Part shown: piece after piece, positions 4,946-36,022 of the stretch
Numbering within the stretch: the first letter of the stretch is position 1
How the letters are laid out: the number at the start of each line of letters is the position of its first letter
Translations under genes and position numbers: made by a program
DNA from: an uncultured Acidobacteriota bacterium
GTDB taxonomy: Bacteria > Acidobacteriota > Terriglobia > Acidiferrales > UBA7541
Assembly (NCBI GenBank): GCA_963741045.1
Contig: CAVUGO010000006.1
Coordinates: forward strand, 72,934-136,933
DNA: 64,000 nt
Direction of reading: 5' to 3'
The notes under the pieces: generated by a model
What the model saw: only the letters and a program-made list of their open reading frames with translations
Told to the model about the DNA's origin: nothing
Database searches by the model: none

Positions 4946-6361
4946 ATGCTCGCACGTTCAGAATCCGAGCTGGCTTTTCTTTCCATCGAGCAGGCCGCGC
5001 GCTTGCTCTGCAAGAGGGATATCTCGTCCTCCGATCTCGTCGAGCTGGCGCTAACGCGAATCGAACAATTCAATCCGGCCCTTAATGCGTTCATTTCCGT
5101 GGCTGCCGATCGCGCCCGTGCGGACGCTCGCCGTGCTGAAAAGCAATTGCGCAGGCGCGGCACCACAAGTCCGCTCTGCGGCATTCCTGTAGCGATCAAA
5201 GACAATTTCTTTACTCGCGGCATTCGCACCACCGCCGGCTCACCAATCCTTTCGGATTTCGTTCCCGATACAGACAGTGACGTCGTCCAAAAACTCAGGC
5301 ACGCCGACGCCATCGTGCTCGGCAAAACCAACATGCACGAATTCGCCTACGGTATCACCAATGAGAATCCGCATTACGGCCCGGCGCGGAATCCATGGGA
5401 TCTCGATCGCGTAACAGGTGGCTCGAGTGGAGGATCGGCGGCTGCTCTCGCGATGGGAATTGGATACGCCGCCACCGGCACGGACACCGGCGGCTCGATA
5501 CGCATTCCCTCGGCGCTCTGCGGGATCGTCGGACTGAAACCCACGTTCGGTCTCGTCAGCGTAGAAGGTGTTGTGCCGCTCGCGAGAACGCTCGATCACG
5601 CAGGTCCAATGGCCCGCGGCGTCACGGACGTCTGCATCATGCTCGAGGCAATCGCGGGCAATTATCATCGAGGCGCCATCCGCCCTGATTACCGGAAGCT
5701 CCGCAAGATCCGCCCCCGCAAATTCCGAATCGGCTGGCCCGAACAATATTTTTTTGAGAGCATCGATCGAGAAGTGCAGGCCGCGATCGAATCCGCGGCG
5801 AAATGTTTGAAGTCCCTCGGTGCGACGATCACGGACGTTTCGCTACCAAGCCTCGATCAGTCCGTCGAACCCAGCACCAACATAGCGCTCGCCGAAGCGA
5901 CTCAGTACCACGAATCGAAGGGTTATTTTCCGGCGCAGGCGAGCAAATATAGCGACGACGTTCGGCACAGGCTCGAGATCGGCCGCAAGGTGCTGGCGGC
6001 TGATTACCTCCACGCTTTCGACGTGAAACGAAAAATCACTCAGGAATTCGATACGGTTTTTGAAGATGTAGACGCGATCCTCGCGCCCACTCTTCCTATC
6101 GCCGCGTCACGTATCGGTGAGAAAGAAGTCGTAATCGGCGGAGAAAAAGAAACCGTGCGGTCTGCCTTCGTGCGCTTGAATCGGCCCGCCAATCTCACGG
6201 GCCATCCCGCAATTTCGATTCCGTGCGGCTTCACGCGCGCCGGTTTGCCGATCGGTCTGCAATTGATCGGGGCACATTGGAGCGAAGCGCGATTGCTCTC
6301 CATCGCGCTGGCCTACGAAGACGCCACCGAATGGCACAAGCGACGCCCCCAACTCGCATAG
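4946..6361 (+). CDS. Amidase-signature family enzyme (GatA-like amidase)
   Basis: Amidase signature [12 protein letters not shown], plus [16 protein letters not shown] and KDNFFTRG blocks. Confidence 0.8.
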
Positions 6362-19539: not shown

Positions 19540-22500
19540 CTAGAATTGAAGTTTCAACCCCCACTCAATCGTCCGGGGAGCTCCGAACGCGAACACGCCG
19601 GTTCCCGCGCCGATGCGATCGGGACGCGGATTATCCACTGTGTTCGGTCCAGTGCCATTGATTGAGCCTGGAGTGCCCGTTAGCTGAGGATTCAGGATGC
19701 TGGCTGCCGAATCATAGTTGGCGAAGTTGAAGGTGTTGAAGATGCTGACACTCGGAATGATTGTCAGCCTCTCGTGCCAGACGTGCCCGACCCAGCTGAA
19801 GGTAGTATCGAAGTCCTTCAGCCAACCGTAACCGACGTTGTTGGCTGGAGGCACTGCGATCGGCTGAGCCACGGCACCCAATGCCTGCAGGTCCGCAAGC
19901 GTCACCAGACCCGAGTTAATGAGCACCTGACCCGCTGGCGTGGGAAGCCCGGCGATGTTCGTGTTGTAATTGTTGATTGCGTTCGTCAGACCGACGGGCC
20001 CGATTTGGCGCATGAAGGCACCCACCTTGTAGAGCGAGTAGTCGCAGGTGCCACCCATGGTGCCGCACGATGTGCTCGTCTCTGCGCGGGGAAGCGGGTT
20101 TCCAACCTGCCCGGTGCCGATGTAATCGGTTTCGAAGATTCCACCGGCTGCGCCGATATTGTTGCTGCCATTCACCGGCAGAGTAAAGGGCGTACCCGCA
20201 AAAGGCGACCAGAAGTGGGAAACGATTCCGATCCGGAAGCCAAGCGGCAGATCGGCATAACCGCCGATGTTGAACTGGTGGGTCCGGTCAAGAGATCCCG
20301 GCCCAGACAGTGCGTTGGGATTGCGATTGTCGAGAGCGTTGTTCACGAAATCCTGGTCGCCTCCTGCTGCGCAGGTCGGGCTGCAGGTGTTGGAACCTGA
20401 GTTGACGAAGCGCGACAGGCTATAAGCGAACTGGAAATTCATGTATTTGACGCCCTTGAACGGATGGCTAACGTTCTGCGCCAACTTGATATCCAATCCG
20501 TTGTAAACCGAGCGGCCGGCCGATTGGTACTGATACAGAGCGCCCACGTTCGGGTTGATTCCGCCAAAGGCGCACGCCTGCCCCAAACCCACCGAGCATT
20601 CGCCGACGCCTTGGTCGTAAGGCGAATCGAGGCCAAACGCACCAAATGTGCCAATCGTGGCTCCCTTATTCGCCGCCAATCCCGGAGCACCGGGTACGTT
20701 GCAACCATTCGCTGCGGCCGCCGCCTGGATATTGGCAGCTCCGCAGAATGCGAGAGTACTTGCAATTGCGTTCGCCGCTGCGTCCTTACTGAAGTATGCA
20801 ACGTCTCCAGTGTGGTTGATGTCGGTTCCGATCAGATAGTGCAAGCCGACGTTGCGGATGTAATCTGCGGTTAGGATCAGTCCGGGCCGCAACTCTCGCT
20901 GCAAGCCCACATTCATTTGGAACGACCGTGGCGACTTGTAGGCGGGGGCGAGCAAACCGGTGGTGAGCAAGCTACCGTTCGCGATTCCTGACGGAATAAA
21001 CGCTCCATTGGAACCACCGCCGGCATAAGACGCCTGATATTCGGTCTGGAAGTTACCGAGGCAGGCTGCAAACGTAATGCCTGAGCACGTACCGGCACCG
21101 GGTCCCACCGTCGCGCCGATTGGCGTGTTGCACGCAACACCCCCGGCAGCCTTAGTCGAGTCCCCGAGGAAGTGGGTGCTCCCATCTCCAAACACAACAC
21201 TGCTCGGCCCGAAAGCACAGGGAGCCTGGACGACGTTGAACGCTCCGTTCTGAAGCCGCAGCAAGCGATCGAACAGAATGTCGTTGAAGACAGTGTTGTC
21301 GTAGTAGATTCCGGCTCCGGCGCGGAACACCATCTTGCCATCGCCCTTGGGATCCCAAGCGATGCCGGCCTGCGGGCCGAAGTTCTTGTTCGGCTGATTT
21401 ACGGTGTTACCGGCGCCCGGGAACACCGCGTTCAGCGCGGGAAGAGGTCCCAGATCGCTGTCGGTGCGGCCCGTGTCGCGGACGTATCGCACGCCGTACG
21501 TAAGAGTCAGATTCGGTTTCACCTTCCAGCTGTCACCGATGTACGCCCCCAGCCGGTTGTCCGGACCGAGACCGCCATTCGGCTTGCCAAAGCGCGAAAG
21601 TTCCGTGAACGCACCCTGGCCGTTCCCGACATCAGCGATATCCGCGATGTAGTTCAACGGGCACGCGGCGCCGGTCTGTCCGCCCGGGCACGTCAAAGTG
21701 CCAGGCGCGGTGAGGTTGACGCTGTCAGCAATCGGGGCGATACCGAAGAAGCTGGCATTGGTCCAACCCGTGATGCGATTGTAGCCGATGCCATAACGGA
21801 TGATGTGCGCGCCCCACACCTTGCTTCCGTCGTATTTAACCTGGCGGTCGCTCTGAATTGTCGATTGCGGAGCCAGGAAACTGGGGCCGCTCTGAAAACC
21901 GGTGCCTCCCAGAATGATGCCGACGGGGAGATTCGCGAAGGGCAAGTCGCTCCCTTGAACGGCGTCTCCGATTACGTTCACAAACTTCAGATATTCCGCT
22001 CGGAAGCTGTGGGTGTATTGGCCGGTGGTGAAATCCACGCCGCCGACCAGATTCTTCGTGCGGTCCCGGTTGTCATACACCGCATAGTTCGCCGCACCGC
22101 CGAAGTTTCCAACGTCGCTTGCTTGCCAGTAGCTGAAGCGGCCGAATGCATGAATCGTCTTGGTCGCCTGCCAATCCAGCCGGCCGAGAAGATTGTTGTC
22201 GTGGAACGGAGCTGGAAAAGTTCCGTTAAACGAATTCAAGTTCGTGCCGTCGCCTCCGGGAATCGAAGAGATAAGAACGCCGCCCGCATCATGGGCAAGA
22301 ATTCTTTCGCCGTCGGCAAAGAAGAACAGCTTGTCCTTGATGATCGCTCCGCCTACATCGCCGCCGTACTGGCTGCGTTGAAATTGAGCGCCGCCCGGAT
22401 ATACCGCGGCTTGCGAGTTGTCGCGGAAGAGACCGAAACCTTCTCCATGCAGCGAGTTCGTACCGGACTTGGTCGCAACGTTGACCGCGCCGCTGGACGT

Positions 22501-23211
22501 AAGGTCATTCGAAAGATCCAAGCTCGATTGTGCGAGCTGGAATTCTGCGATAGCGCTTGAGGGTACGCCCGTGGTCGTGGTGCCGACGTTCTCGTCGCTC
22601 ACGTCCACGCCGTCCACTGAAATGCGCGCGCTGCGGCCATAGCGTCCGCCGAATGAAATCGACGAGAAACCAATCTTGGTGGGATCAAAATTGCCGCCGT
22701 CCTGAATCTGAACGCCGGGTTCGAGTTGCGCCAGGTCGAGAAAGTTTCGGCCGTTGATGGGCAGGTTCTCGATCTGTTGTGTGGTCAAGCTGCCGGACAC
22801 CTGCGCCTGGTCTGTATTCACGGCGATCACTTGGCCGCTCACTTCCACCACCGTGCTCGACGCGCCTAGTTCGAGCTTGATCGGCGCGCTCGACACCTGG
22901 TTGATCTGCACAACGTAGGTTCCGGTCACGGTCTTGAAGCTCGGCGCTTCTACCCGAACCGTATAGTTTCCCGGCACCAGTGAACCCGATGTGAAAGTGC
23001 CGGCCGACGTTGTCGCCGTGTCGAGCGCCGCTCCTGTATCTTTGTTGGTGATCGTAACCTTGGCGTTGGGCACGATACCGCCTTGCGGATCGGTCACCAC
23101 GCCCTGAATGCTTCCTGCTTGTACGTTCGATTGCGCGTGAGCCGGCTGATGGCTGAGAAGCAGCACAGCCAGCAGCGCGAACGTGAACGCTGTAAATCGC
23201 TTCCAGTTCAT
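19540..23211 (-). CDS. TonB-dependent receptor with N-terminal carboxypeptidase-regulatory-like domain
   Basis: Signal peptide MNWKRFTAFTFALLAVLLLSHQPAHAQ, a CarboxypepD_reg-like domain (GSIQGVVTDPQGGIVPNAKVTITN...GNYTVRVEAPSFK), a plug (ENLPINGRNFLDLAQLEPGV), and a large barrel ending ..WGLKLQF. Confidence 0.85.
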   Translation of the reverse strand: MNWKRFTAFTFALLAVLLLSHQPAHAQSNVQAGSIQGVVTDPQGGIVPNAKVTITNKDTGAALDTATTSAGTFTSGSLVPGNYTVRVEAPSFKTVTGTYVVQINQVSSAPIKLELGASSTVVEVSGQVIAVNTDQAQVSGSLTTQQIENLPINGRNFLDLAQLEPGVQIQDGGNFDPTKIGFSSISFGGRYGRSARISVDGVDVSDENVGTTTTGVPSSAIAEFQLAQSSLDLSNDLTSSGAVNVATKSGTNSLHGEGFGLFRDNSQAAVYPGGAQFQRSQYGGDVGGAIIKDKLFFFADGERILAHDAGGVLISSIPGGDGTNLNSFNGTFPAPFHDNNLLGRLDWQATKTIHAFGRFSYWQASDVGNFGGAANYAVYDNRDRTKNLVGGVDFTTGQYTHSFRAEYLKFVNVIGDAVQGSDLPFANLPVGIILGGTGFQSGPSFLAPQSTIQSDRQVKYDGSKVWGAHIIRYGIGYNRITGWTNASFFGIAPIADSVNLTAPGTLTCPGGQTGAACPLNYIADIADVGNGQGAFTELSRFGKPNGGLGPDNRLGAYIGDSWKVKPNLTLTYGVRYVRDTGRTDSDLGPLPALNAVFPGAGNTVNQPNKNFGPQAGIAWDPKGDGKMVFRAGAGIYYDNTVFNDILFDRLLRLQNGAFNVVQAPCAFGPSSVVFGDGSTHFLGDSTKAAGGVACNTPIGATVGPGAGTCSGITFAACLGNFQTEYQASYAGGGSNGAFIPSGIANGSLLTTGLLAPAYKSPRSFQMNVGLQRELRPGLILTADYIRNVGLHYLIGTDINHTGDVAYFSKDAAANAIASTLAFCGAANIQAAAAANGCNVPGAPGLAANKGATIGTFGAFGLDSPYDQGVGECSVGLGQACAFGGINPNVGALYQYQSAGRSVYNGLDIKLAQNVSHPFKGVKYMNFQFAYSLSRFVNSGSNTCSPTCAAGGDQDFVNNALDNRNPNALSGPGSLDRTHQFNIGGYADLPLGFRIGIVSHFWSPFAGTPFTLPVNGSNNIGAAGGIFETDYIGTGQVGNPLPRAETSTSCGTMGGTCDYSLYKVGAFMRQIGPVGLTNAINNYNTNIAGLPTPAGQVLINSGLVTLADLQALGAVAQPIAVPPANNVGYGWLKDFDTTFSWVGHVWHERLTIIPSVSIFNTFNFANYDSAASILNPQLTGTPGSINGTGPNTVDNPRPDRIGAGTGVFAFGAPRTIEWGLKLQF

Positions 23212-23558
23212 ACACCCTCCTGAAGACCTGCCAAGAATCGAATGTCGTTGAAAATTCCGCCGCACACCGGGGAAAATCTCCCCGCAGCGTCTATTGGCAC
23301 GTTGATGCCCAGGCTGGAGCGAAAATACGGCTCTAATTTTTCAGTGACTTACGGGATTTTATCGACAGGCGGGACCGCAACGTCCGAATTTCCATAGAAG
23401 AACAGATTTGACCGCGGAGAAAGAAAATTCGAATTTAGAGAATACTATGACATTCAGAATTGTAAATTTCGTAGAAACGAATCTCGCTAGAAAAGTACTA
23501 AGCGATTTGCCTTACCTGGGGCAATCGAATCATTTCTCACAATCAGACGAGCGGATGC

Positions 23559-24944
23559 TCATTCCTTTGCGCTGCCCACGAGTTTTTCCACTTCGTCTGC
23601 TTCCTTTGGAATCGCGGCCGAAAGATTTTCGGGAGCGCCATTCGTGATCAAAATCGTGTCCTCCACGCGATAGTGCATGTGTTTATCGGGAAATTCCACG
23701 ATCGGCTCCACAGTCACCACCTGTCCGGCTTTGACGGGCCCACTTACGCGCATCACGTCATGTGTTGCGAGCCCCACGAAGTGTCCCGGGTACCCATACC
23801 ATTGATTGCCGATGCCGGCTTTGTCGAACACGGCTTTTCCCGCCGCGTTGGCTTCCTCGTACGTGTGGCCGGGAGTGAGAAGGGCGATGATCGCCTTCTG
23901 GCAATCGAGATCCACCGCGTACCACTTCGCTTGTTCGGGCGTGAATTTTCCGCTGATATTGAATGTGCGCGTGATGTCCATCGTCTCGTGATCGAGTGAA
24001 CCGGCAAAATCGAACACGACAAGTTCGTTGGCTTCGATCTTATGGCGATTCGAAAAATAGTGCCATGTGTTGATGTCGCTTCCGGAGCCGACAATCGCCA
24101 GATACGACGCGCCTTGCGCGCCGTGGTCGAAATCGTAGAAATAGGCGCGCGCTTCGATCTGATATTGATACATTCCCGGATGCGCGTGAGCGATTGCGTC
24201 GCGATTTCCTTCGGCGCTAATTCTTCCAATGCGGCGCAGCACTTCGATTTCTTCCGGCCGCTTGATGTTGCGCATTTCGTCGATCACGGGAGTCATGTCG
24301 CGCAGATGCGACATGGCGTAGCGTTCGGCGAGCAGTTTTGCCGGGGCGAGATCGCTCGGAATCGGCTCGTGATAGGGATGCGCGAATTTCCAGGCATGGT
24401 CGCGTCCAACTTCGGGACGCGCGCCGTCGGCTTTATCGGGGAAGCCGAGACGCAGCCACAGATCGGGCGTGCCGCCGCGCGCAAGCGCATAAGAAAGCGC
24501 CGTGTCGAGATCGGAGACCGGCAGCACCACTTTGTAGCCCAGCGCCTCGCGATCCGTGGGCGTGAGCGAGAGCAAATTCGGGCCGTACACCTGAGCCGTG
24601 CGCCCCGCCTGCGCGGGTTCAAAAATTGCGGTGGTGCCCTTCTCGACGTCCATCAGCATTACAGCGCCGGGATCCTGCAGGCCCGTGAAGTAATAAAAGT
24701 CATTGTCTTCGCGGTAGTGCGTGGATTCGGGAATTTCATTGCGGGCGAAAAGGATTGCGTAGCCAGTCTTCAGCTGCTTGGCAAGATCCGAGCGGCGAGC
24801 GGCGAATGTCTGGGGGCCGCCGAGATCGTCGATCGCCTGCTTGTCGGTATATTGCGCCGCAGCGGTGCCGCAAAAAAGCAGCACGACAACCGCGCATATC
24901 CATCCGCGTAGCAAATGTCTGCTTTCGAATCCCATCCGCGCCAT
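23559..24944 (-). CDS. Secreted M24-family Xaa-Pro aminopeptidase
   Basis: Signal peptide, creatinase-like N-domain, and a pita-bread fold with blocks VVFDFAG, GHFVGLATHD and VTVEPIV. Confidence 0.75.
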   Translation of the reverse strand: MARMGFESRHLLRGWICAVVVLLFCGTAAAQYTDKQAIDDLGGPQTFAARRSDLAKQLKTGYAILFARNEIPESTHYREDNDFYYFTGLQDPGAVMLMDVEKGTTAIFEPAQAGRTAQVYGPNLLSLTPTDREALGYKVVLPVSDLDTALSYALARGGTPDLWLRLGFPDKADGARPEVGRDHAWKFAHPYHEPIPSDLAPAKLLAERYAMSHLRDMTPVIDEMRNIKRPEEIEVLRRIGRISAEGNRDAIAHAHPGMYQYQIEARAYFYDFDHGAQGASYLAIVGSGSDINTWHYFSNRHKIEANELVVFDFAGSLDHETMDITRTFNISGKFTPEQAKWYAVDLDCQKAIIALLTPGHTYEEANAAGKAVFDKAGIGNQWYGYPGHFVGLATHDVMRVSGPVKAGQVVTVEPIVEFPDKHMHYRVEDTILITNGAPENLSAAIPKEADEVEKLVGSAKE

Positions 24945-25055
24945 CGCATTCCTCCGGAAATGATTTGTACGAATTCTATTTTCAGACGGGCGGAGCTTAT
25001 CGCAGAAGCGCGAGCTGGAAAAGCCATTTAGAGATGTGTCGGTCGGAAAAACGCT

Positions 25056-26093
25056 CTATTGAGGACCACGCGAGCGCCGGCCTACGTCAATGGCCTGCGA
25101 AGCAGCAGCCGGCTGCAATTTTGCGCCCGTGGAAGAGCCGAACGTGATCGCATCGCGCGTCTTTGCAAACGGCGCTGAGTCGACGAACTTCACCGTGTCG
25201 CCTTCGCGCTCGACTCCGAGTTCTTTCCACAATGCATCGAGATCCACCGGATAAGGCTGATTTTTCATTTTCTGATAAAGCGGCATGAGAACAGAAACTC
25301 CGGTAGCCGCGTCGCCGGCCGTAAGAGCTTTCTCGATTGGCCAATCGTAGCGGATCTCCCCGCCGGCGTTCAGAATTCCGCGCAACGCGTCGTCGAGTCC
25401 CTTGTGATTATTCGTCTGTTTGTGAATTTCGACGTCCGCGAGGAAGCAGAAAAGGGCGCCGCCCCAGTACGTTCGGCCCCAAGTATGGGTGTGATCCAGC
25501 CCTTCGTCGCCGGGCTGCGGCAATCCTTGATGCAAATCGCGCACCAACTCGAACCACATTTCATGCGCATCCATGTTCTTGGCGCGCACGCGTGCAATCG
25601 GCTCTACATAGGTGGCGATTCCCTCTTCGATCCAATGGTGTTCGTCCGCCATCGAAGGGAACGAGAGGTGCACCATTTCGTGTGTCAGCATCCAGTCGGA
25701 GTTTAGCCCCCGCACCGTTGTCTCTCTGCCCACATGGATCGAAATGCGCCCGCCGTCTTTTGCGCCGAACGTTTGTCCCCCGCGCACACCTCGCCCGTCC
25801 GCCGGAATAATTCGAAGCGCCACTTCAGGGACAGGAAAGCGTTCGTAGTAGGTGGAGACGGAATCCGCCGCCATGCGCACCCACTGCATTAGCTCTTGAT
25901 TGGAGAGTTGCATCGGGCCGCTTTCGATATTCACGTCGATTCGCGACGAGCCAACCAGAATTGTGGATGTCATCTCATCTGCCGGGACGCGCAATGCGGG
26001 AACCAGAAGCAGAAGCAAGAATACCGGAATTAGAATTCGAAAGCTGCTACGCGAAGCACAATGAATCGCGGAAGTCCCAGAGCGTGTGGTCAT
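25056..26093 (-). CDS. Putative secreted gluzincin metallopeptidase (HEXXH + WIEEG)
   Basis: N-terminal hydrophobic signal, then LTHEMVHLSFPSMADEHHWIEEGIATYVE (HEXXH plus a downstream Glu in an EG context). Lies 90 nt downstream of, and co-directional with, the DoxX gene. Confidence 0.55.
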   Translation of the reverse strand: MTTRSGTSAIHCASRSSFRILIPVFLLLLLVPALRVPADEMTSTILVGSSRIDVNIESGPMQLSNQELMQWVRMAADSVSTYYERFPVPEVALRIIPADGRGVRGGQTFGAKDGGRISIHVGRETTVRGLNSDWMLTHEMVHLSFPSMADEHHWIEEGIATYVEPIARVRAKNMDAHEMWFELVRDLHQGLPQPGDEGLDHTHTWGRTYWGGALFCFLADVEIHKQTNNHKGLDDALRGILNAGGEIRYDWPIEKALTAGDAATGVSVLMPLYQKMKNQPYPVDLDALWKELGVEREGDTVKFVDSAPFAKTRDAITFGSSTGAKLQPAAASQAIDVGRRSRGPQ

Positions 26094-26185
26094 CACTTAG
26101 TAGGATGCGATGAAAAGGCGTTTTGCTGGAAACAAATCAGAGGAGTATCGGAACTATTTGTGAGGTTAGCTGTTGTCAGCTGTTT

Positions 26186-26683
26186 TCAGATATTGACTCG
26201 GCCCCGATTCGCGTACTTTTTCTCGATCAGATAGTCGAGCGCGATCTTGCCGGGTCCGAAGATCAGGATCACCAAGGCGACGGCGAGGTAAATAAACGGG
26301 TCCGCATTGTAGAACTTGGACGGATCCGAAATAAAAGCGGTAAGCGAATCGCGGTCGGATGTCATGTAGGCAGTGAGCATGTCGATGACGAGGCCAAGTG
26401 CGGCTACGCGCGAAAGCAGGCCGATCGCCAGCAGAATCCCAGCTACGAACTCGAACGTGGAGACAAAACCGGCGGTGGCTCCCGGCTCCGGAATGCCGAG
26501 GCTTGCAAAGAACTGCGTGACGTGCGGGAGATTGTGAAGCTTGCCCCACCCGTTCAGCGCAATGCCAGCAGGCCAGAGGCCAAAGTAGACGCGGATACAT
26601 AGCAGGAGCGCCGACTGCAAGCTGGAAGCCACTCGGACCAGCAAGCCGTACAGGTTTTGGATTTGTTCCCGCAGGCCGCTCAT
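26186..26683 (-). CDS. bufD: DoxX-family membrane protein (BufD-like)
   Basis: Four TM helices with DoxX-like sequence (RVYFGLWPAGIALNGWGKL..., GLLSRVAALGLVIDMLTAY). ATG 26683 overlaps the upstream stop as ATGA. Confidence 0.7.
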   Translation of the reverse strand: MSGLREQIQNLYGLLVRVASSLQSALLLCIRVYFGLWPAGIALNGWGKLHNLPHVTQFFASLGIPEPGATAGFVSTFEFVAGILLAIGLLSRVAALGLVIDMLTAYMTSDRDSLTAFISDPSKFYNADPFIYLAVALVILIFGPGKIALDYLIEKKYANRGRVNI

Positions 26684-27576
26684 CTCTTTTTCGCCGCCAT
26701 GGAGCGGCAGAACCAGCCCAGAGTAGACCAAGTCTGGAACCAGCTCTGAATTTGCGCGGGCCTCTCTTCCGGCGCGATCGAACTCTTGCGCAGAGCGGAG
26801 GCAATGGCCCGGCTTAGCGTCTTGCCCGCGCGCAGTTCCTTCAGGATCAGGAATTCTTCGCGCTCGAGGCGCCGGAAGTACACGGAATCATCGAGGCGGT
26901 GCACGGCAAGAAAAATCGTCGAAGGCTTCAGCCGGGCGACCGCGCGCACGCGCTTCTGCTTGTGCCGCTCATTGAAAGCGTTGCTCGCGAAATCCGTGTC
27001 CGCTTCGTGTTTCTTCAATTCAATCAGAAGGTCATCCACAGGATAGTGCAAATCGAGAAGATGAATGTAAGGCTGCAACTGCAAGCGCAGCGTCTCCGGA
27101 TCAGCTCCCGCGAGATCTTCAGGTTTCAAAGCGGGTTCTGCCTTTCCGTCGAAAGCGTCAATATCGGCCCATTCCAGCCGGACCATGTCGAGTGCCAGCT
27201 CTCGTCGCGAGCTAGTCCATTTCGGATTCTTGCGCAGCCACGTTTCCAATTTTGACCCGAGGTTTCGCAGCGTGAACGAAGTCGAGGGGCAATCGTTGAT
27301 GTAAGCCTTCGCGGCTGCATCGAATTTGCGTTCGCCAAGCACGGCGCGAAGACCTGGAAAATCCTCCGCAAACGCGGAAAGCACTCGAAACCAATATTGG
27401 CGGTTGTAGATTTCCAGGCGCTCAAACGAAGTGAGCCGATCGTTCGGCTTGATGATGTCCGCAGCGACCTTCCGCAGCGACCGGCCGTCAGGCGCCGTCG
27501 GGCGCATGCGCTCGGCGGGAGTGAGAGGCGTCATCACCGCCCGCGCCATACGGCGCTGGATGCTTAGAAGACTCAT
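26680..27576 (-). CDS. bufC: DUF2063-family MNIO partner protein (BufC/MbnC-like)
   Basis: LEIYNRQYWFRVLSAFAEDFPGLRAVLGERKFDAAAKAYINDCPSTSFTLRNLG is the typical DUF2063 N-terminal domain. There are ATGA overlaps at both ends of the gene. Confidence 0.75.
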   Translation of the reverse strand: MSLLSIQRRMARAVMTPLTPAERMRPTAPDGRSLRKVAADIIKPNDRLTSFERLEIYNRQYWFRVLSAFAEDFPGLRAVLGERKFDAAAKAYINDCPSTSFTLRNLGSKLETWLRKNPKWTSSRRELALDMVRLEWADIDAFDGKAEPALKPEDLAGADPETLRLQLQPYIHLLDLHYPVDDLLIELKKHEADTDFASNAFNERHKQKRVRAVARLKPSTIFLAVHRLDDSVYFRRLEREEFLILKELRAGKTLSRAIASALRKSSIAPEERPAQIQSWFQTWSTLGWFCRSMAAKKR

Positions 27577-28424
27577 ACGGCGGTGGCGAGCGAGGCGCTC
27601 GCGAGAAACTTGTTGGCCTTCAGCGCCTCATCATGGACTTCCTGGAACGAAGGAATACTGTCGTCCCATTCGAGGAGCGTCGCCGTGTGGCCCACACGTT
27701 CAATGGCGCGCTCGTAAAGTTTCCATACCGGATCGATCACCGGATGATCGTGCGTATCGAGAATGTATTTCTTGAATTTTGAATGTCCGGCGATATGAAT
27801 CTGCGCCACGCGGTCGGCTGGAACGCTATTTACATATGTAAACGGATCGAAATTGTGGTTCTTCGAAGAAACGTAAATATTGTTCACATCGAGAAGAATC
27901 CCGCAATCCGCCCGCTCCACCACTTCATTTAAAAACTCCCACTCGGTCATTTCCGAAACGTGAAACTCGGCATAGCTGCTCACGTTTTCCACCACCACCG
28001 GTGTTTCAATAAAATCCCGCACCTCGCGAACTTTTTGCGCGGTGATACGTGCCGCTTCGAACGTGTAAGGCATCGGAAGCAGGTCGTGCGTATAGCGCCC
28101 ATCCACACTGCCCCAGCAAAGATGATCCGAAACCCACGGCGTTTTCGTCCGCTTCACCAATTCCTTCAATCGCCGTAAATGTTCGCGGTTCGGCTTTTCC
28201 GCCGAGCCGAAATACATCGAAACGCCATGCTGCACCACGCGATACTGCTCGAGAATTTGATCGAGAATCCGCAACGGCCGGCCGCCGTCAATCATGAAAT
28301 TTTCAGAGATGATTTCGAACCAGTCCACCACCGGTTTCTTGGTAAGAATATGGTGGTAGTGCGGGGCGCGCAGCCCGATTCCCACTCCGTAATCCGTGAA
28401 TCCGTTGAACCGATTTGCAGGCAT
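27573..28424 (-). CDS. bufB: DUF692/UPF0276 multinuclear non-haem iron oxidase (MNIO; BufB/MbnB-like)
   Basis: Signature blocks GIGLRAPHY, EIISENF, HGVSMYFGS, SDHLCW, VENVSSY, LLDVNNIYV and IHIAGH. The start is ATG 28424, or TTG 28436 as in the ORF track. Confidence 0.85.
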   Translation of the reverse strand: MPANRFNGFTDYGVGIGLRAPHYHHILTKKPVVDWFEIISENFMIDGGRPLRILDQILEQYRVVQHGVSMYFGSAEKPNREHLRRLKELVKRTKTPWVSDHLCWGSVDGRYTHDLLPMPYTFEAARITAQKVREVRDFIETPVVVENVSSYAEFHVSEMTEWEFLNEVVERADCGILLDVNNIYVSSKNHNFDPFTYVNSVPADRVAQIHIAGHSKFKKYILDTHDHPVIDPVWKLYERAIERVGHTATLLEWDDSIPSFQEVHDEALKANKFLASASLATAV

Positions 28425-28464
28425 TGAATTCCCCAAATCTACAAAACAAAGTCTAGATAGAAAG

Positions 28465-28492
28465 AGGGCCGGAGAATTCTTGCCGGCCCTCC
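28465..28492 (-). terminator. GC-rich hairpin between precursor gene and MNIO gene (putative attenuator or partial terminator)
   Basis: gagggccgg-N10-ccggccctc, a perfect 9-bp stem. On the minus-strand transcript it is followed by tttctatctagactttgttttg (T-rich but interrupted). Confidence 0.45.
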
Positions 28493-28524
28493 GTCAGGTA
28501 ACGCGGTATTGCTTCAGCGGGTCA

Positions 28525-28812
28525 CTACGACGGCTTCTTCGAGCCGTCAGTTGCGCAGCCGCCCTTGCCCTTGCAAGAGTTCTTGCCTTTGCAACCGTTG
28601 TCGCCCGCTTTGCAACCGCCCTTGCCCTTACAGGAGTTCTGGCCTTTACAGGCGTGCTTTTCCTTCACCTTTTTGTCGCCCGAATCCTGAGCACTGAAGG
28701 TGTTGCCCTTCGCGCTCGAGAGAAGGTTCGACGCTTGCACGGTGACCGCAGTCCCGGCCAACAAACCAGCCAGCGCTGCTCCTGCTATCAAGCTCTTCTT
28801 AGACTTTGTCAT
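28525..28812 (-). CDS. bufA: RiPP precursor 1: Sec-signal peptide + six-Cys Lys/Gly-rich core (bufferin 6/12-Cys-like)
   Basis: Trimmed to ATG 28812, preceded by AGGAGG. Sequence MTKSKKSLIAGAALAGLLAGTAVTVQA|SNLLSSAKGNTFSAQDSGDKKVKEKHACKGQNSCKGKGGCKAGDNGCKGKNSCKGKGGCATDGSKKPS. Located immediately upstream of DUF692. Confidence 0.8.
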   Translation of the reverse strand: MTKSKKSLIAGAALAGLLAGTAVTVQASNLLSSAKGNTFSAQDSGDKKVKEKHACKGQNSCKGKGGCKAGDNGCKGKNSCKGKGGCATDGSKKPS

Positions 28813-28950
28813 GTTTCCACATCCTCCTGTCGATTTGGACTGCAACCGCCCTGATGCTAGTACGTCGCCCCAATGCATTTGGATTGGCCTTCTGGTTGGT
28901 CGAGACTGGGTTCGTTCCAAGCCTCTCGCACGGCGCGAGAAGCTGCCGGG

Positions 28951-28979
28951 AGCATAATCCAGGCAGTTACCGAGAACAA
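28951..28979 (-). promoter_or_regulatory. Putative sigma70-type promoter of precursor 1
   Basis: Minus strand reads TTGTTC (28979-28974), a 17-nt spacer, then TATGCT (28956-28951). Homology with the second copy ends just upstream of it. Confidence 0.4.
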
Positions 28980-29134
28980 CAGCTAATGCACCGGGTGCCG
29001 GAGGATGCCAGCGCAGAACGCTGCTCTCCGCTCTGACCGAGCGTCCAGACTGCTCGGCGGATACCACTCACAACTTCCCGCCGAGGGGCTGGGTTTCGCT
29101 CGGCGTATTTCCGGAAGGGTTTGATCCGACGCTA

Positions 29135-29419
29135 TTAGCCGGGCATCTTGGAGCCGTCAGTTGCGCAGCCCCCTTTGCCCTTGCACGAGTTCTTGCCCTT
29201 GCAGCCATTGTCACTCGACTTGCAGCCGCCCTTGCCTTTACAGGAATTCTGGCCTTTACAAGCGTGCTTTTCCTTCACCTTGGAATCGTCTTTCTGCGTG
29301 CTGAAGGTGTTGCCCTTCGCGCTCGACAGCGGATTGGACGCCTGAACCGTTACAGCAGTCCCGGCCAACAAACCAGCCAGCGCTGCTCCCGCTATCAAGC
29401 TCTTTTTGGACTTTGTCAT
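29135..29419 (-). CDS. bufA: RiPP precursor 2: paralogue of precursor 1
   Basis: Trimmed to ATG 29419, preceded by GGAGG. Sequence MTKSKKSLIAGAALAGLLAGTAVTVQA|SNPLSSAKGNTFSTQKDDSKVKEKHACKGQNSCKGKGGCKSSDNGCKGKNSCKGKGGCATDGSKMPG. All six Cys are conserved. Confidence 0.8.
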   Translation of the reverse strand: MTKSKKSLIAGAALAGLLAGTAVTVQASNPLSSAKGNTFSTQKDDSKVKEKHACKGQNSCKGKGGCKSSDNGCKGKNSCKGKGGCATDGSKMPG

Positions 29420-29553
29420 GTCTCTACCTCCGATAGATTTGGACTGCAACCGCCTGAAGCTAGTACGTCGTCCCAATGGTTTCGGTTTGGCTTACTGGTT
29501 GTTGAGACTGGGTTCGTTCCAAGCCCCGCGCACGGCGCGAGAAGCTGGCGGGG

Positions 29554-29583
29554 AGCATAATCCAGTTAGCAGGTCTGTAACAA
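29554..29583 (-). promoter_or_regulatory. Putative sigma70-type promoter of precursor 2
   Basis: Minus strand reads TTGTTA (29583-29578), an 18-nt spacer, then TATGCT (29559-29554). Confidence 0.4.
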
Positions 29584-29666
29584 TAGGTAAAGCACCGCAT
29601 GGCCGAGTACCAGACCAGCATAGAACTCGGTCGGCCGCAATCGCCGGCTTTTCGGGTCAGTATTGT

Positions 29667-30635
29667 TCAGGTCGCAGGCCAGGTCTGATTCAGAATCATC
29701 GCCAGGCGGAAGCCTGCCTTCGCGAGTTGCTCTTCGATGGTACGAGTTACGAAGGACTGATACGTCGGCCCCACCTTTTCCCTCAGCTTAAGCATTCTCT
29801 CGGCGATCTCGTCCGCATCGGCGCAGGTGCTCACGGGCTCGGGAGTTTCCACCGGGATCTTTCGATTCAGTGCTCCGTACGTCGCTTGTTCGGCCGCCTC
29901 GTGGCTTTCCCAGGCCCAATTATCAAAGTTGACGCCCTCCTCTTTCCACGTCGCGAATTGAGGCTTGAACCTCTTCTCGATAGTGGCGGCGAACTGCTCG
30001 ACGGTCTCGCCACCAGCGATGCGCTCGACGAGCTGTGTGTCCCAAACTCCGTGAAGATTCAATTGGTAGGTCTTAGTGATCTGATCGGTCTCCAGCGGCT
30101 TTTGGCCGAAGTACGTGACCGGGACGCAGTTCCCGCCGCGGTCGTTGTTCGTTGTGCAGTGCAGCGGCTGATGAATGTCCCCCGCGAAATGGATGATGAA
30201 CCGCAGCGCATTCGCTCGAGCAGTCGGATTGCTAGCCGGATCCTGAAGAATCTTCACCTGCTCGGCGAGAGCAAGCGTGATGCAGCTTTGCGTCGCGTCG
30301 CAAGTGAAGCTCCCCTTCTTGGATCCGCGAGGGATGTCAATGAAATGCCAGCCGGCGGTTTCGGGATGGGCTTTGCGGTAATCGTCGGCCCACGTTGCGG
30401 CGTCTTCCATTGGATCGGTTGCGATTGGCTTGCAGAAGCGGTCGAGCGTCGGGTCGACAGGATTGTCAGTGAGAATCTGATTCACCATCGCCAGCGCGTG
30501 AGGATTCAGGTTCTGCTTGGCGATGAGGGCGACCGTTTGATGGCCTTCGCAACCCCATGCGAGCGAGCGAGGGCAATGCAACAGAACAGAACCGAATACG
30601 AGAGCGACGAGAGTTGCGAAGCGAGCCCGATTCAG
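29667..30635 (-). CDS. Secreted S1/P1-family zinc nuclease
   Basis: Blocks WGCEGHQTVALIA, WHFIDIP, HFAGDIHQPLH and NLHGVWD. The ORF track starts at TTG 30581. I extend to in-frame CTG 30635 to recover a signal peptide (see findings). Confidence 0.8.
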   Translation of the reverse strand: MNRARFATLVALVFGSVLLHCPRSLAWGCEGHQTVALIAKQNLNPHALAMVNQILTDNPVDPTLDRFCKPIATDPMEDAATWADDYRKAHPETAGWHFIDIPRGSKKGSFTCDATQSCITLALAEQVKILQDPASNPTARANALRFIIHFAGDIHQPLHCTTNNDRGGNCVPVTYFGQKPLETDQITKTYQLNLHGVWDTQLVERIAGGETVEQFAATIEKRFKPQFATWKEEGVNFDNWAWESHEAAEQATYGALNRKIPVETPEPVSTCADADEIAERMLKLREKVGPTYQSFVTRTIEEQLAKAGFRLAMILNQTWPAT

Positions 30636-30935
30636 GTTAGCACCTCAGTTTGAATGCCCCAGTTGAGAACACAATGCCTCGCCATGAATTCTATTCGGTC
30701 GAGCGCGCGGAAAATAGCCTTCATTTGCGGCGAATCATCATAGATGCAGACTCTTGCCTTGGTGTCAGTCGCGGTGTCTGAAAACCCGGTTTTTCCGTGT
30801 ACGTGACGCGGTGCTTTTGGCGCGAGAAATCTACGCTGCCGACAGGCAATTCCCGCCAAGTATCGCGTTCGGGCACGGCCCTCCTGCGGCGGGTCCCAGA
30901 CATGCCGTGCCCCTACTGAAACCCCCGCCTTGCTG

Positions 30936-31436
30936 CTAATCCCAGGCGCCTAGGACGCGGCGTAGGAGAACTAGTTCGCCGATGTGATAGGCGTTGTGGT
31001 CGGCTGCTAGCAGTGCCTGGCGGAGAATCGTCTGGCCGTCGCCGTGGGAGATTTTCGCGAATAGGTCGGTGGATTCGTTGTTTATTAGATCGCAGAGAGC
31101 TTTGCGATCGGCCTGAAATGCGGCGGCGCTTTTCTCCCAGGCTTTTGCGTCAGGGGGTTCGGGCGATTTCGGCCAATAGCCCTCCGGGAATTCAGGCGAT
31201 TTGTGTTTGGCGTTGCGCGCGAATTCGAGAATATCCCATTGCGCGATGCGCAAGTGTTCGAGCATTTCCCACGGTGAGTGCGCCGCACCCTTCGGTCGTT
31301 TGCCTTGCAGATCAGCGGGCAGATCTTTCACGGCGGTTTCAAAATTCGCGTGGGCTTCGCTGTCGCTGAGGAGCTTCACGAGTTGTTCGCGGAGTGCTTT
31401 GTCCTGGTTGGTGCTGGTTGCCGTTGCGGTGGTCAT
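30936..31436 (-). CDS. DinB-family protein
   Basis: Trimmed to the SD-preceded ATG 31436. Contains HLRIAQWDILEFA and AADHNAYHIGELVLLRRVLG, the DinB/DinB_2 four-helix His motifs. Confidence 0.7.
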   Translation of the reverse strand: MTTATATSTNQDKALREQLVKLLSDSEAHANFETAVKDLPADLQGKRPKGAAHSPWEMLEHLRIAQWDILEFARNAKHKSPEFPEGYWPKSPEPPDAKAWEKSAAAFQADRKALCDLINNESTDLFAKISHGDGQTILRQALLAADHNAYHIGELVLLRRVLGAWD

Positions 31437-31548
31437 GTTTGTTCCTCCCTTTTTTCGATTGGATGATGGTGTCTTTCGATTCGATTGAACGAATTTCAGC
31501 GCCCTGGGCGACAGGAGGGCCGTGCCTCTACTGTCGAAACTCCTCGCG

Positions 31549-33138: not shown

Positions 33139-33576
33139 TCAGCTATTGCCCCTGAACCACACTTGCCACGCAACGAGGCCAAGATAGCTCGTAGCAAGAA
33201 AAAGAAACAAGAGCGTCAGCAAGGTATGCCCCACGACGAACATCTTTCCCTTAGGCCAGTCCTCGTGGGAGAAGTAAAAAAAGTCCACCAGAATGCGCGC
33301 AGTCCAGTAAAAACCAATGAAGCAGGCCAATGCTAAGGCAGCGCGGTCCCCCCGCAGCAGTTCCCTGTGAAGCACCAGGGTGAGAGTCCCAAACACAAGG
33401 ATGGTCAACACCGTGAATCCGCTCTGCACCCAAAGCAGCTTACGATTGAAGGGCATTAGCGACCGCAAATCCTCTTTCCATCGCAAGCGGTAGGGCACCT
33501 GAAAGCTAGCGCACAAGATTACGAAGTGTCCGATTCCACACAGCCACATGCCGAGATCGAAAAATGATTTCGTCAT
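33139..33576 (-). CDS. Small integral membrane protein (4 TM), hypothetical
   Basis: ATG 33576 overlaps the stop of the upstream gene as ATGA. Hydrophobic throughout. Confidence 0.5.
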   Translation of the reverse strand: MTKSFFDLGMWLCGIGHFVILCASFQVPYRLRWKEDLRSLMPFNRKLLWVQSGFTVLTILVFGTLTLVLHRELLRGDRAALALACFIGFYWTARILVDFFYFSHEDWPKGKMFVVGHTLLTLLFLFLATSYLGLVAWQVWFRGNS

Positions 33577-34502
33577 AGGGCGCGAATCGCCTGCATAAAG
33601 GGAAGAATAACGCGCATTACGAACCAAGGATGAAAGAGCCAGAACACCGGCGCCGCAACGAACACTGCCATGAACAGCCAGCCGCGCGCTCCGTGCGCGA
33701 GACCGAGGCGTTTACCCCAGCGGGAATGTTCCATGGTGATTCCGGCACCTTGAAGCAGGAAATATCCGGTCGGGAGTCCGTACCCTCCACGAGCAGGCAA
33801 TGAGATCACCAGGTCATGAACAAGTCCAGATACCAGAAACACGATCATCCCCGCAGCTTCCACGCCCAAAGATCGATGCAACGGACGGAAGATCAACTCG
33901 TAGCCCAACTGACGAAAGCCGAGGTTCCAACGCTTTCCCCAAAACTCTGCGAGCGATGTCGCTCGAAGCGGGGCGGACATAATTGATTTCGCGTTCACGC
34001 CGGCGGCCTGCCACATCAGCGCGACGATTTGAAAGGTCCCGAAATGCAGAAGCAGAACCAAGCCAGCCATGCCTGTCCATCCACGAAGAAGGGGCTGGCT
34101 CGCCGGTAGAGAGCGCGCGACGACCCAAAGCATGGTCGCACCTAATGCAGTCTCAAGCGTTGCCCAGAACCATGCTGTCGCCGGAGGACGCGTGACGCGC
34201 CTGCTCGGATTCAGGAATTCATCTGCATCCATTCCCGGCCAAGCGAGAAGATATGCCGCAGAGCGCCATCCTGCATGCGCCTCTTGATCCGTCGCTCTCC
34301 ACCACGTGAGCCATTTCAAACTGATGAAGATCGCGAACGAAAGAATCCACATGAACACCCAGGCTGGCCAGAGGTTGCGAAGTGCTATGGCCGTCGCAGG
34401 CAAGACCAAGAGAGGAAGCCATCCGACCCACGCGGAGCGCTGTTCTCTCGGGCGCATCGCCGGTTGAATTTCGTCCGCCGTTTTTTCGGTTAAGGTATTC
34501 AC
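33573..34502 (-). CDS. MBOAT_2 / wax-synthase-like membrane acyltransferase family protein
   Basis: Polytopic protein with SLAEFWGKRWNLGFRQL and FLVSGLVHD (conserved His) blocks. GTGA overlap with the upstream gene. Confidence 0.6.
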   Translation of the reverse strand: MNTLTEKTADEIQPAMRPREQRSAWVGWLPLLVLPATAIALRNLWPAWVFMWILSFAIFISLKWLTWWRATDQEAHAGWRSAAYLLAWPGMDADEFLNPSRRVTRPPATAWFWATLETALGATMLWVVARSLPASQPLLRGWTGMAGLVLLLHFGTFQIVALMWQAAGVNAKSIMSAPLRATSLAEFWGKRWNLGFRQLGYELIFRPLHRSLGVEAAGMIVFLVSGLVHDLVISLPARGGYGLPTGYFLLQGAGITMEHSRWGKRLGLAHGARGWLFMAVFVAAPVFWLFHPWFVMRVILPFMQAIRAL

Positions 34503-36022
34503 TTCTCTGCCGAAAGCCGAACTTCATAAACGGTCGGCAATGAATCCGAGTTTGTGCGCACGAAGCTCCGCACCAGCTCTGTGCGGGAAAAATGACCGAG
34601 ACTCAAGAGCCGGATGCATTCGTCCGTGGCGCAACTTTCCCACGAGGTGCGCCTTCCCCATGGGAAGCAACTCGCCTCGATTACGCGCACCGAGAGTTGG
34701 TCCTGAATACCCGATTCTATTTGCTCGCGCAGCCATCGCAAATAATCGAGTTTTTCCGCGAGGGCGGCTTTGGGATCTTCCCGGACGACCACGCCCGGAA
34801 AGTCAGGGATGTCACGCCGCAACGTGTGAATATGACCGTGTCCCTCGACCAGAATCTCGATGTCGAGCTCCATCAGCCGTTCGAGACTGGCAAGCCATTT
34901 CCGGCTATCTACGTCCGGATTAGGGGTTGCAAAATAGCTGCCCATGAAAGCATCACCCGCCAGCAGCAATTTCTCTTTGGGATCGTACAGAACAATGTGG
35001 TCGTCGCAATGGCCTGGGGCTGCTATGACGAGCAATCTGCCGGATGCGGTCTCTACGCTACTTCCCATGAGACGATATGGCTGCGCCAGGTTTGGAGGTT
35101 GTCCGATAATTGCCGCGCGAACCCAGGGAAGTTTTTTGAATGGAGTCAGGAACTGGGCCGTCATCTCCGAAACATAGATTGGCGCGGCGGTCTTCGTGGC
35201 GAGCCAATTGAGATTGCCAACGTGTTCCTCGTGCGCGTGGGTAGCTACTATCCCAATGATTTTATCGTTGCCTCGCGCGAGATGGCGTTTGAGTGATCCT
35301 CGCATCTTCGGCGAGCCGGGGTCGACAGCGAGCCCGTCATACAACACGGTTGTGAACAGCTCGCCGAAGAGAAGCGGAACCGCATTCGGCAAGAAGCCAT
35401 TTAAAAACAGAATGCTTAGCTTGCCATCGAGCAAATCGAGTCGCTTGCGGTAAGTTCTGATGAAGACGCTGGCCCTTTCTGCTGCTGCTTTAAGACCAGA
35501 CCACATCACCAGCGGCAGCCTTATGAAAAAACCCAGCGTGTAGCACGACCAGAACGCTCCCGCGCGCGCTTGCCGCCGAACCGCCTCCGGTTTTGCAATG
35601 CGACACGATCCACCCCGGCATTTGCTCAGCGAATATCTGTTTGTGGCCACGAATCCGTAGAGCAGCCGTCCCAAATTTCGGAATGGAAAACGTTGCCCCA
35701 GTACACCAACGAGCCATGTCAGCGGACACAGCCGAGCTAGAGACGCGACAGCGTCCCAGCCGACGCGAATTTCTCCTTCGGGCGTGACCACGTGCATCTG
35801 CCGGAGGCAATTTTGCAGTTTGAGTCGCGAGTCCACTGATGCCAAGACGTCTTCACGAATGGGAAGGCAGATTGTTTTTCTGTTGCGATCCAGAACTTTC
35901 AGCCATGCGACACATGCCTGGCAAATTTCGCACTGGTCGTCGTAGAGGACTCGGTACAGCTTCTTCCGCGTGCGAAGGTCTTCGGCGGATTTATCCAGGA
36001 CGGCTACTGAGTGGTGAGCCAT
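34499..36022 (-). CDS. Fusion protein: DCC-family (DUF393) thiol-disulfide oxidoreductase + TM region + MBL-fold metallo-hydrolase
   Basis: N-terminus YDDQCEICQACVAWLKVLD (DCC CxxC). C-terminus VATHAHEEHVGN, APGHCDDH and EGHGH, the metallo-beta-lactamase metal ligand blocks. Confidence 0.65.
   Translation of the reverse strand: MAHHSVAVLDKSAEDLRTRKKLYRVLYDDQCEICQACVAWLKVLDRNRKTICLPIREDVLASVDSRLKLQNCLRQMHVVTPEGEIRVGWDAVASLARLCPLTWLVGVLGQRFPFRNLGRLLYGFVATNRYSLSKCRGGSCRIAKPEAVRRQARAGAFWSCYTLGFFIRLPLVMWSGLKAAAERASVFIRTYRKRLDLLDGKLSILFLNGFLPNAVPLLFGELFTTVLYDGLAVDPGSPKMRGSLKRHLARGNDKIIGIVATHAHEEHVGNLNWLATKTAAPIYVSEMTAQFLTPFKKLPWVRAAIIGQPPNLAQPYRLMGSSVETASGRLLVIAAPGHCDDHIVLYDPKEKLLLAGDAFMGSYFATPNPDVDSRKWLASLERLMELDIEILVEGHGHIHTLRRDIPDFPGVVVREDPKAALAEKLDYLRWLREQIESGIQDQLSVRVIEASCFPWGRRTSWESCATDECIRLLSLGHFSRTELVRSFVRTNSDSLPTVYEVRLSAEK

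Follow-up and report, generated by a model that had tools for sequence, protein, structure and literature searches.

A putative acidobacterial bufferin operon of the Cys-Lys group with a linked M1/M61-like gene

Introduction

What is made from two small six-Cys proteins with signal peptides whose genes precede those of a multinuclear non-haem iron oxidase (MNIO), a DUF2063 protein and a DoxX-family membrane protein, and is the system so formed a new one? The question is raised by an operon on the minus strand of a 64-kb stretch of DNA from an acidobacterium of the Acidoferrales/Terriglobia lineage (contig CAVUGO010000006.1). This whole stretch is referred to here as the window and all coordinates are window positions. 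A preliminary description had presented the operon as a barely characterised system for the synthesis of metal-chelating peptides, of which no acidobacterial member had been studied. Literature searches are consistent with the latter statement; the former can no longer be upheld.

Bufferins were defined in 2024 as periplasmic peptides that contain Cys-derived thiooxazoles and buffer copper; two types were distinguished, Buf1 (DUF2282) and Buf2 (BUF_6/12Cys) (PMC11626156). A survey published in 2025 gave precursor, MNIO, DUF2063 and DoxX genes as the core of the biosynthetic gene cluster, noted tandem precursors and found sigma/anti-sigma genes in Buf1 clusters, not in Buf2 clusters (PMC12452194). 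In 2026 the class was renamed captophorins, with more than 24,000 MNIO-PME1 loci, and its precursors were sorted into DUF2282, Lys-Cys (EGKCG) and Cys-Lys groups (PMC13097082). The same source reassigns oxazolin to a 5-thiooxazole; the oxazolone-thioamide alternative that had been offered for the heterocycles of the window peptides is thus now disfavoured.

With the class published since 2024 and that many loci catalogued, the operon is not a new system. Rather, it belongs to an acidobacterial branch of the Cys-Lys/Buf2 bufferins, very abundant and so far unstudied, which is distinguished by a shortened, invariant precursor core and by a co-conserved M1/M61-like gene. The likely function of the operon is the biosynthesis of a bufferin/captophorin of the Cys-Lys (Buf2-like) group.

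Results

Maturation genes of the bufferin type

The product of the MNIO gene (27573..28424; 283 aa) matches the Pfam family PF05114 (MbnB_TglH_ChrH) with 358 bits (E 2.7e-107) and, at 350.4 bits (E 5.6e-105), exceeds the cut-off of 310 of the NCBIfam model NF050167 MNIO_BufB ("MNIO family bufferin maturase"). It stays below the NCBIfam cut-offs for HvfB (250.4 versus 360), MbnB (43 versus 325), ApyH and ChrH. Each of the DUF692 blocks previously listed (GIGLRAPHY, EIISENF, HGVSMYFGS, SDHLCW, VENVSSY, LLDVNNIYV and IHIAGH) is found in the protein, whose conserved blocks are HGVS66, SDHL99, VENV145, LDVNN178, HIAGH210, DTHDH223 and LLEWDD250.

The adjoining gene, translationally coupled to the MNIO gene by an ATGA overlap at 27573-27576, encodes the DUF2063 partner (BufC / PME1-type, 298 aa; 26680..27576). 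The protein matches PF09836 with 55.5 bits (E 6.9e-15, cut-off 27.2), so that both of the profile matches on whose presence the preliminary description had made its assignment depend, DUF692 and DUF2063, are found. Its match to the HvfC model is weak (46.8 bits, cut-off 142), which is normal for Buf2 loci, since the partners in three canonical control loci show the same. A second ATGA overlap, at 26680-26683, connects this gene to that of the DoxX-family membrane protein (BufD-like, 165 aa; 26186..26683). The latter matches PF07681 with 52.7 bits (E 6.9e-14, cut-off 23.6) and, weakly, the HvfX model (40.4 bits, cut-off 80). Both overlaps lie where they had been placed, and the profile matches, with the MNIO above the BufB cut-off, confirm both the layout of a signal-peptide precursor followed by MNIO, DUF2063 and DoxX genes and its place in the bufferin class.

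One segment of the MNIO bears on the choice of group. The window protein has LLEWDD at positions 250-255, and EWDD is kept in 113 of 114 related loci. The equivalent site reads ERDD in three canonical Buf2 MNIOs, ERDG in a Buf1 MNIO (L082) and ERDF in 3bww from H. somni, the best PDB match, which we take to be an MNIO of the Lys-Cys type. According to PMC13097082, the residue next to the catalytic Asp is Asp in Cys-Lys MNIOs and Phe in Lys-Cys MNIOs (FonB D249/F250; BufB2 D251). As far as the equivalence with the FonB site can be judged from the alignment, the window MNIO matches this Asp-Asp determinant. The Asp-Asp pair, together with five C-K-G sites in the peptide, places the locus in the Cys-Lys group.

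Two short precursors with a near-invariant core

The precursor genes read from 29419 to 29135 (precursor A, 29135..29419; 94 aa plus stop) and from 28812 to 28525 (its paralogue, precursor B, 28525..28812; 95 aa plus stop). The ORF table and the sequence confirm these trimmed lengths and the picture of five co-directional minus-strand genes. The Shine-Dalgarno (SD) sequences are present as well: GGAGG lies 9 nt upstream of the start codon of A, and AGGAGG upstream of that of B. Each precursor is made up of a signal peptide (residues 1-27), a variable linker and a six-Cys core. As had been described, both start with MTKSKKSLIAGAALAGLLAGTAVTVQA/SN, with VQA at positions -3 to -1, and both contain HACKGQNSCKGKGGCK(S/A)(S/G)DNGCKGKNSCKGKGGCATDGSK with exactly six Cys, which in precursor B are residues 55, 61, 67, 74, 80 and 86. 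By eye and by hydropathy, the signal is of the Sec type, with three Lys in the n-region and an 18-residue hydrophobic stretch (Kyte-Doolittle maximum 2.3).

Five of the six Cys stand in a C-K-G context, which holds in nearly all of 120 homologues aligned. The multiple Cys-Lys motifs that define the Cys-Lys group are therefore present, while inspection of the two translations found no EGKCG motif. It had been predicted that the precursors would match a BufA2 model and not DUF2282. The prediction was borne out in that the NCBIfam model NF050166 Cu_RiPP_BufA2 is the sole match; the score, however, is 39.2 bits (E 6e-10), under the cut-off of 60, and covers model positions 3/6-64 of 79. A Pfam scan at E <= 1 yielded no match to PF10048 (DUF2282) and nothing but Tmemb_14, a spurious match to the signal peptide.

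As positive controls we used three proteobacterial loci (Legionella, Asticcacaulis and P. mandelii) reached via an MNIO search. Their BufA2 precursors score 80.5-100.1 bits over model positions 1/2-78 and follow the canonical pattern C-x5-C-x5-C-x6-C-x5-C-x~12-C, then a GG-containing hydrophobic tail. The window precursors have C-x5-C-x5-C-x6-C-x5-C-x5-C without such a tail. With the same spacing from Cys1 to Cys5, a short Cys5-Cys6 spacer and no tail, they are homologous to BufA2 yet shortened. Their linker after the signal peptide, in turn, is longer (~26 residues, versus ~7 in two of the three controls). Judged by sequence, the precursors are a divergent Buf2-like / Cys-Lys subgroup, not bona fide BufA2.

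The core, of ~40 residues, is built as a perfect repeat of one unit, 2x(CKGxNSCKGKGGC). Among relatives from Acidobacteriota and part of the Verrucomicrobiota it is near-invariant, as judged from the 120 best homologues and 80 genome loci (KEKHACKGQNSCKGKGGCKxxDNGCKGKNSCKGKGGCATDGSK), with the signal peptide and above all the linker free to vary; the linker (residues 28 to ~49) is rich in Ser, Ala, Gln and Asp and poorly conserved. Such near-invariance is unusual for the core of a peptide that is made by the ribosome and modified after translation (RiPP) and argues for constraint on every residue. The AlphaFold2 model of the precursor (pLDDT 48.5, without secondary structure) is uninformative beyond the lack of a confident fold. 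A tblastn search of plasmids with the precursor gave no match, probably as a result of low-complexity masking.

A sixth gene encoding an exported M1/M61-like protein

Downstream of the DoxX gene, after 92 nt, lies a sixth gene of the same strand (25056..26093) for a protein of 345 aa whose hydrophobic N-terminus (Kyte-Doolittle 3.45) is a signal or an anchor. The protein has no family match in Pfam or NCBIfam, and none of its listed homologues carries a Pfam domain. It contains HEMVH at 138-142 and EEG at 156-158; 35 sequences all have H138, E139, H142, E156 and E157. A Foldseek search with its AlphaFold2 model (pLDDT 79.9, pTM 0.77) returned 97 matches at E <= 1e-3; the 50 listed are without exception M1/M61 entries, among them 7xyo (M61; E 4.8e-7, query-normalised TM-score 0.52) and 6a8z (M1; E 2e-6), with ERAP/IRAP among the neighbours. 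The GxMEN exopeptidase motif was not found in the translation. From its modelled fold, the protein is predicted to be an M1/M61 gluzincin, acting as an exo- or endopeptidase.

Linkage of this gene to the operon was found from both sides. Among 80 genome loci retrieved with the precursor, tblastn detected a peptidase homologue in 43 of the 63 complete operons: 38 directly downstream on the same strand, and five rearranged but still adjacent (L013, L036, L067, L069 and L079). Conversely, in an independent metagenome scan seeded with the peptidase, buf genes were present in 62 of the 70 loci having at least 700 nt upstream, and the full precursor-MNIO-DUF2063-DoxX block in 31 of the 35 having at least 3.5 kb (peptidase identities 56 to 85%). 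Upon clustering, no other flanking ORF family occurred in more than 17 of 106 loci. Thus, the five genes initially described are real, and on the evidence of the peptidase linkage the functional unit probably comprises six.

That the HExxH protein might instead be a general periplasmic peptidase, syntenic with the operon and devoid of any role in maturation, so that the unit would be of five genes, is a serious possibility, if not the one we favour. It would agree with the 92-nt gap to DoxX, as opposed to the ATGA overlaps inside bufBCD, and with published surveys, which report no conserved extra gene (PMC12452194). Further points weigh at the same time against a dedicated role. The gene is missing from 20 of the 63 loci. 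The wider peptidase family, with ~3,050 clusters at 50% identity, includes longer forms: many members have 470-500 aa, with an extra N-terminal region of ~190 residues (P0248-P0390). Of five contigs on which the contexts of distant homologues were considered, four are too short to judge; the sole informative one, bearing a long form of 477 aa (L167 5282-6715), shows an unrelated context with no adjacent MNIO. Finally, the linked examples all come from related lineages, and the linkage is to this extent a matter of shared ancestry. Against a purely syntenic origin stand the linkage in both directions at the above identities, an adjacency that outlasts five rearrangements, and the decay of every other flanking family to 17 of 106 loci or fewer. 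As to the survey, it took in an unrelated gene only if 10 bp or less separated it from a known one, never mentions a peptidase and would, under this rule, have missed the sixth gene (PMC12452194).

The six-gene unit is therefore preferred, with the bufferin link specific to the short peptidase clade, as the long form sits in an unrelated context. With ~3,050 clusters and no Pfam domain among the listed homologues, a sizeable unannotated gluzincin family is apparent. A role of the sixth-gene protein in trimming the precursor linker is a reasonable hypothesis.

Tandem duplication and hairpin

The precursor genes are contained in a tandem duplication (28525..29566; offset 607 nt in a pairwise alignment), each unit of which comprises a leader of ~150 nt and a precursor coding sequence. 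Leader identity between the units is ~79-87%. Of 94 codons, 26 show synonymous and 9 non-synonymous differences between the coding sequences; the duplication can therefore not be very recent. The closest relative, L001, has one precursor unit at the same place, and precursor A resembles the L001 precursor. Tandem precursors also occur in L080, L142, L159 and L161. In L080 (3305-3947), a metagenome-assembled genome (MAG) of the Chthoniobacteraceae, the second of two tandem precursors has nine Cys arranged in three CxGxxxCxGxxxC-type units; since there are three units, not two, the 3-Cys unit behaves as a module.

The leader was considered as a possible regulatory RNA and rejected: its folding is not significant (z -0.06 and +0.09) and, outside the SD sequence, it shows no conservation across 79 loci. 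Its likeness between the two copies is attributed to the duplication. An Rfam search of 24500-31500 at E <= 1 returned nothing, and a sigma-70 scan upstream of the precursors found no promoter. A TTGTT(A/C)-N17/18-TATGCT sequence at the left edge of each repeat is a match by eye of 8/12 only.

Between precursor B and the MNIO gene, fold prediction places a stem-loop (28455..28491) which, read from 28491 to 28455, has the form GAGGGCCGG-N10-CCGGCCCUC, then UUUCUAUCU. A hairpin with a folding free energy of -15 kcal/mol or lower is found in 107 of 107 related precursor-to-MNIO spacers (103 distinct sequences; median -25.6 kcal/mol), with a U-rich tail behind it in 66 of them; control spacers of similar length between DoxX and peptidase genes have a median of -14.9 kcal/mol. 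A hairpin after the precursor gene is a familiar device by which RiPP operons make more precursor than enzyme. The one in the window is a candidate transcription terminator/attenuator or a 3' stabiliser of the mRNA.

Distribution and incomplete loci

Precursor relatives are very common. A search returned at least 7,647 matches among 8,000 scored candidates (protein clusters); those listed are all annotated "hypothetical protein" without a Pfam domain, the named ones belonging to Candidatus Acidiferrales. This annotation results from scores below the BufA2 cut-off. In a one-genome-per-species collection, a relative is encoded in at least 533 of 600 pattern matches. Those listed are mostly from Acidobacteriota (Acidoferrales, Acidobacteriaceae, Bryobacterales), with some MAGs labelled Verrucomicrobiota and single ones labelled Eremiobacteraceae, Binatia and Eisenbacteria. 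Two of the loci, L047 and L075, come from MAGs assigned to Edaphobacter and Granulicella. The gene order of the full operon, DoxX included, is kept in 63 of the 80 genome loci; among the loci examined, L001 is closest, with DNA 88-91% identical and syntenic over ~9 kb.

Some loci are incomplete. In L023, L029, L063 and L064 an intact precursor (~6001-6290) is followed ~200 nt downstream by DoxX, with no adjacent MNIO or DUF2063 gene; DoxX hence seems to go with the peptide and not with the maturase. L003 (6001-6674) has an intact precursor, then a 93-aa MNIO remnant (81% identical over the first ~64 residues and divergent after them) and no DUF2063 or DoxX gene, which suggests an operon in decay with its precursor retained. 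Together with the stand-alone precursors noted in the 2025 survey (PMC12452194), such loci could suggest that the small proteins are unmodified periplasmic binders rich in Cys and Lys, akin to metallothioneins, or that some copies escape modification. We find this very improbable here: both window precursors are followed directly by an intact BufB/BufC pair, whose MNIO has all its conserved blocks, and the stand-alone L064 comes from the same assembly as a full operon, L016.

Ligand and weight of the assignment

Several observations count against the assignment made above. The precursors score under the cut-off for BufA2 and are without the C-terminal module bearing CysVI in canonical Buf2, for which reason the identity of the modified Cys is not safely transferable. 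The RiPP recognition element (RRE) domain of the partner went undetected by sequence: the match to NGO1945_C, the RRE-type C-terminal domain, has an E of 0.11 only, and neither phmmer nor a 15-sequence profile run against the PDB retrieved 3DEE, the structure of the DUF2063 partner protein of N. gonorrhoeae (PMC13097082). Lastly, the surroundings of the operon in the window contain neither copper genes nor a sigma/anti-sigma pair or a metal regulator, and none of these is recurrent in 106 related loci.

This last point raises the possibility that the same biosynthesis serves another ligand (a metal common in acidic soils and peat, such as Zn, Cd, Ni, Co, Fe or Mn) or answers redox or sulfur stress. 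The difference of the Lys/Gly-rich precursor core from the Buf2 peptide tested with copper would allow it, as would the existence of MerC-bufferin fusions, for which roles with other metals or stresses were suggested (PMC12452194). Nevertheless, all characterised members, namely Buf1, Buf2, oxazolin, fontiphorin and bulbicupramide, bind copper or respond to it (PMC11626156, PMC13097082, PMC12538549), and the window MNIO is a BufB equivalog. A ligand other than copper is thus judged unlikely, and a copper-binding bufferin of the Cys-Lys group remains the preferred assignment.

Neighbouring genes

Upstream of the operon is a gene for an S1/P1 nuclease (29667-30581, minus strand; PF02265, E 1e-55) and downstream of it one for a protein that resembles M24 Xaa-Pro aminopeptidases and is hydrophobic at its N-terminus (23559-24944, minus). 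Both are probably unrelated to it, since outside the closest relatives (L001, L084-L086) they are not retained. A gene for a 566-aa protein (e.g. L030 8968-10668) follows the operon in 13 of 106 loci and comes after precursor and DoxX in L063 (8233-9933); by eye, this protein looks like a combination of a membrane domain and an NDH-2-like flavoprotein.

NrsF, an anti-sigma F protein, regulates Buf1 operons in Caulobacter. A sub-threshold NrsF match at 33139-33627 (minus; E 0.006, 16.9 bits, cut-off 26.8) is probably spurious, as no gene for a sigma factor was found next to it. Elsewhere on the minus strand the window encodes a 507-aa fusion of DCC1-like thiol-disulfide oxidoreductase and metallo-beta-lactamase domains (34499-36022), an adjoining MBOAT_2-like membrane protein (33573-34502), a 1241-aa CarboxypepD_reg and outer-membrane beta-barrel protein (19540-23265) and a protein of 342 aa whose C-terminal domain is a chagasin-type (I42) peptidase inhibitor (38373-39401). 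A large GAFx3-GGDEF-HD(-GYP) signalling protein is encoded on the plus strand (14066-17491).

Discussion

A possible pathway

The data can be assembled into the following scheme. Each tandem precursor gene would be expressed with its own leader, and the stem-loop probably limits read-through or stabilises the precursor mRNA, giving more peptide than enzyme. By homology to Buf2 and fontiphorin, the iron-dependent MNIO and its DUF2063 partner would oxidise the Cys of C-K-G motifs to 5-thiooxazole in the cytoplasm, with a loss of 4 Da per Cys. The modified peptide would then be exported by the Sec system and, to judge from its signal, cleaved after VQA27. In the periplasm, gene linkage and predicted fold suggest that the exported M1/M61-like zinc peptidase may trim the linker (28 to ~49), which would leave the invariant ~40-residue core KEKHAC...CATDGSK. 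By analogy with known bufferins, this core, with His53 and the thiooxazoles, would chelate copper and buffer it in the envelope. DoxX may act as a membrane redox partner; in Caulobacter it is dispensable for modification (PMC11626156).

A bolder version of this scheme, to which we would give only tentative credence, is that of a six-gene "mini-bufferin". Here a dedicated peptidase would remove a disordered pro-linker and free an unstructured peptide of ~40 residues, in which five or six Cys would be converted to thiooxazole, as compared to the four central ones in Buf2, and whose metal in acidic soils may be other than copper. If true, a maturation protease dedicated to the pathway would be a first among bufferin-type pathways, and the family would rank with the most widespread RiPPs of soil metagenomes that still lack annotation.

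The locus opens no new kind of biology. Its interest is rather that the exported copper-binding peptides known as bufferins/captophorins form a very large class, recognised only recently, on which experiments have been done almost entirely in Pseudomonadota, and that this clade is very common in soil Acidobacteriota. Recognition of the clade would improve annotation. The minimal invariant core should be useful for studying how MNIOs choose their Cys, and the linked M1/M61-like gene is a candidate for a periplasmic maturation step unreported in this class.

Comparison with known systems

Methanobactin, a secreted chalkophore, has oxazolone/thioamide groups. With its MbnABC system the operon shares an MNIO that acts on Cys of a ribosomal peptide and a copper-binding product, both predicted here. 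The operon differs in its MbnB score, far below the cut-off, in having no MbnC and in having a signal peptide in place of a leader.

The sixth-gene protein resembles M1/M61 aminopeptidases (7xyo, 8j9c, 6a8z) in predicted fold over ~265-300 aligned columns and in having HExxH and a downstream Glu in EEG. It departs from them in sequence (11-18% identity), in size (only ~300 mature residues), in the spacing HExxH-X14-E rather than X18, in lacking GxMEN and in being, by prediction, exported and linked to a RiPP operon.

Oxazolin (HvfABCX of H. influenzae), fontiphorin and gonophorin have in common with the window system an MNIO, a DUF2063 partner (DUF2063/RRE in theirs), a DoxX-family protein (HvfX in oxazolin) and a signal-peptide precursor with repeated Cys motifs; 5-thiooxazoles are a further likeness, predicted here. 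In contrast to theirs, the window motif is C-K-G, not E-G-K-C-G, and the MNIO has Asp-Asp, not Asp-Phe. FonBC leaves ...NACKG substrates unprocessed (PMC13097082).

Bufferin 1 (bufABCD) has the same gene order of precursor, MNIO, DUF2063 and DoxX; Sec export, thiooxazole and copper buffering are features of the class, predicted for the window. The window precursors, however, lack DUF2282 and have six Cys instead of four, the operon has no SigF/NrsF pair, and its MNIO has Asp-Asp where the Buf1 MNIO L082 has Asp-Gly.

From Bufferin 2 (BufA2-BufB2-BufC2, Caulobacter vibrioides CCNA_03001-02999) the window system differs by the Cys5-Cys6 spacer of 5 residues versus ~12, the absent hydrophobic C-terminal segment, the longer linker (~26 residues) and the near-invariant core, in which Cys1 stands in a C-K-G context, as do the modified Cys of Buf2. 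It also has a DoxX gene, absent from Caulobacter buf2, and a peptidase-like gene. According to PMC11626156, modelling of the Buf2 precursor gives a small protein with a fold, unlike that of the window precursor (pLDDT 48.5). The likenesses extend to a Sec-signal six-Cys precursor with C-K motifs, the Cys1-5 spacing of 5, 5, 6 and 5 residues, a BufB-equivalog MNIO with Asp-Asp, an adjoining DUF2063 partner and a cluster without sigma/anti-sigma genes.

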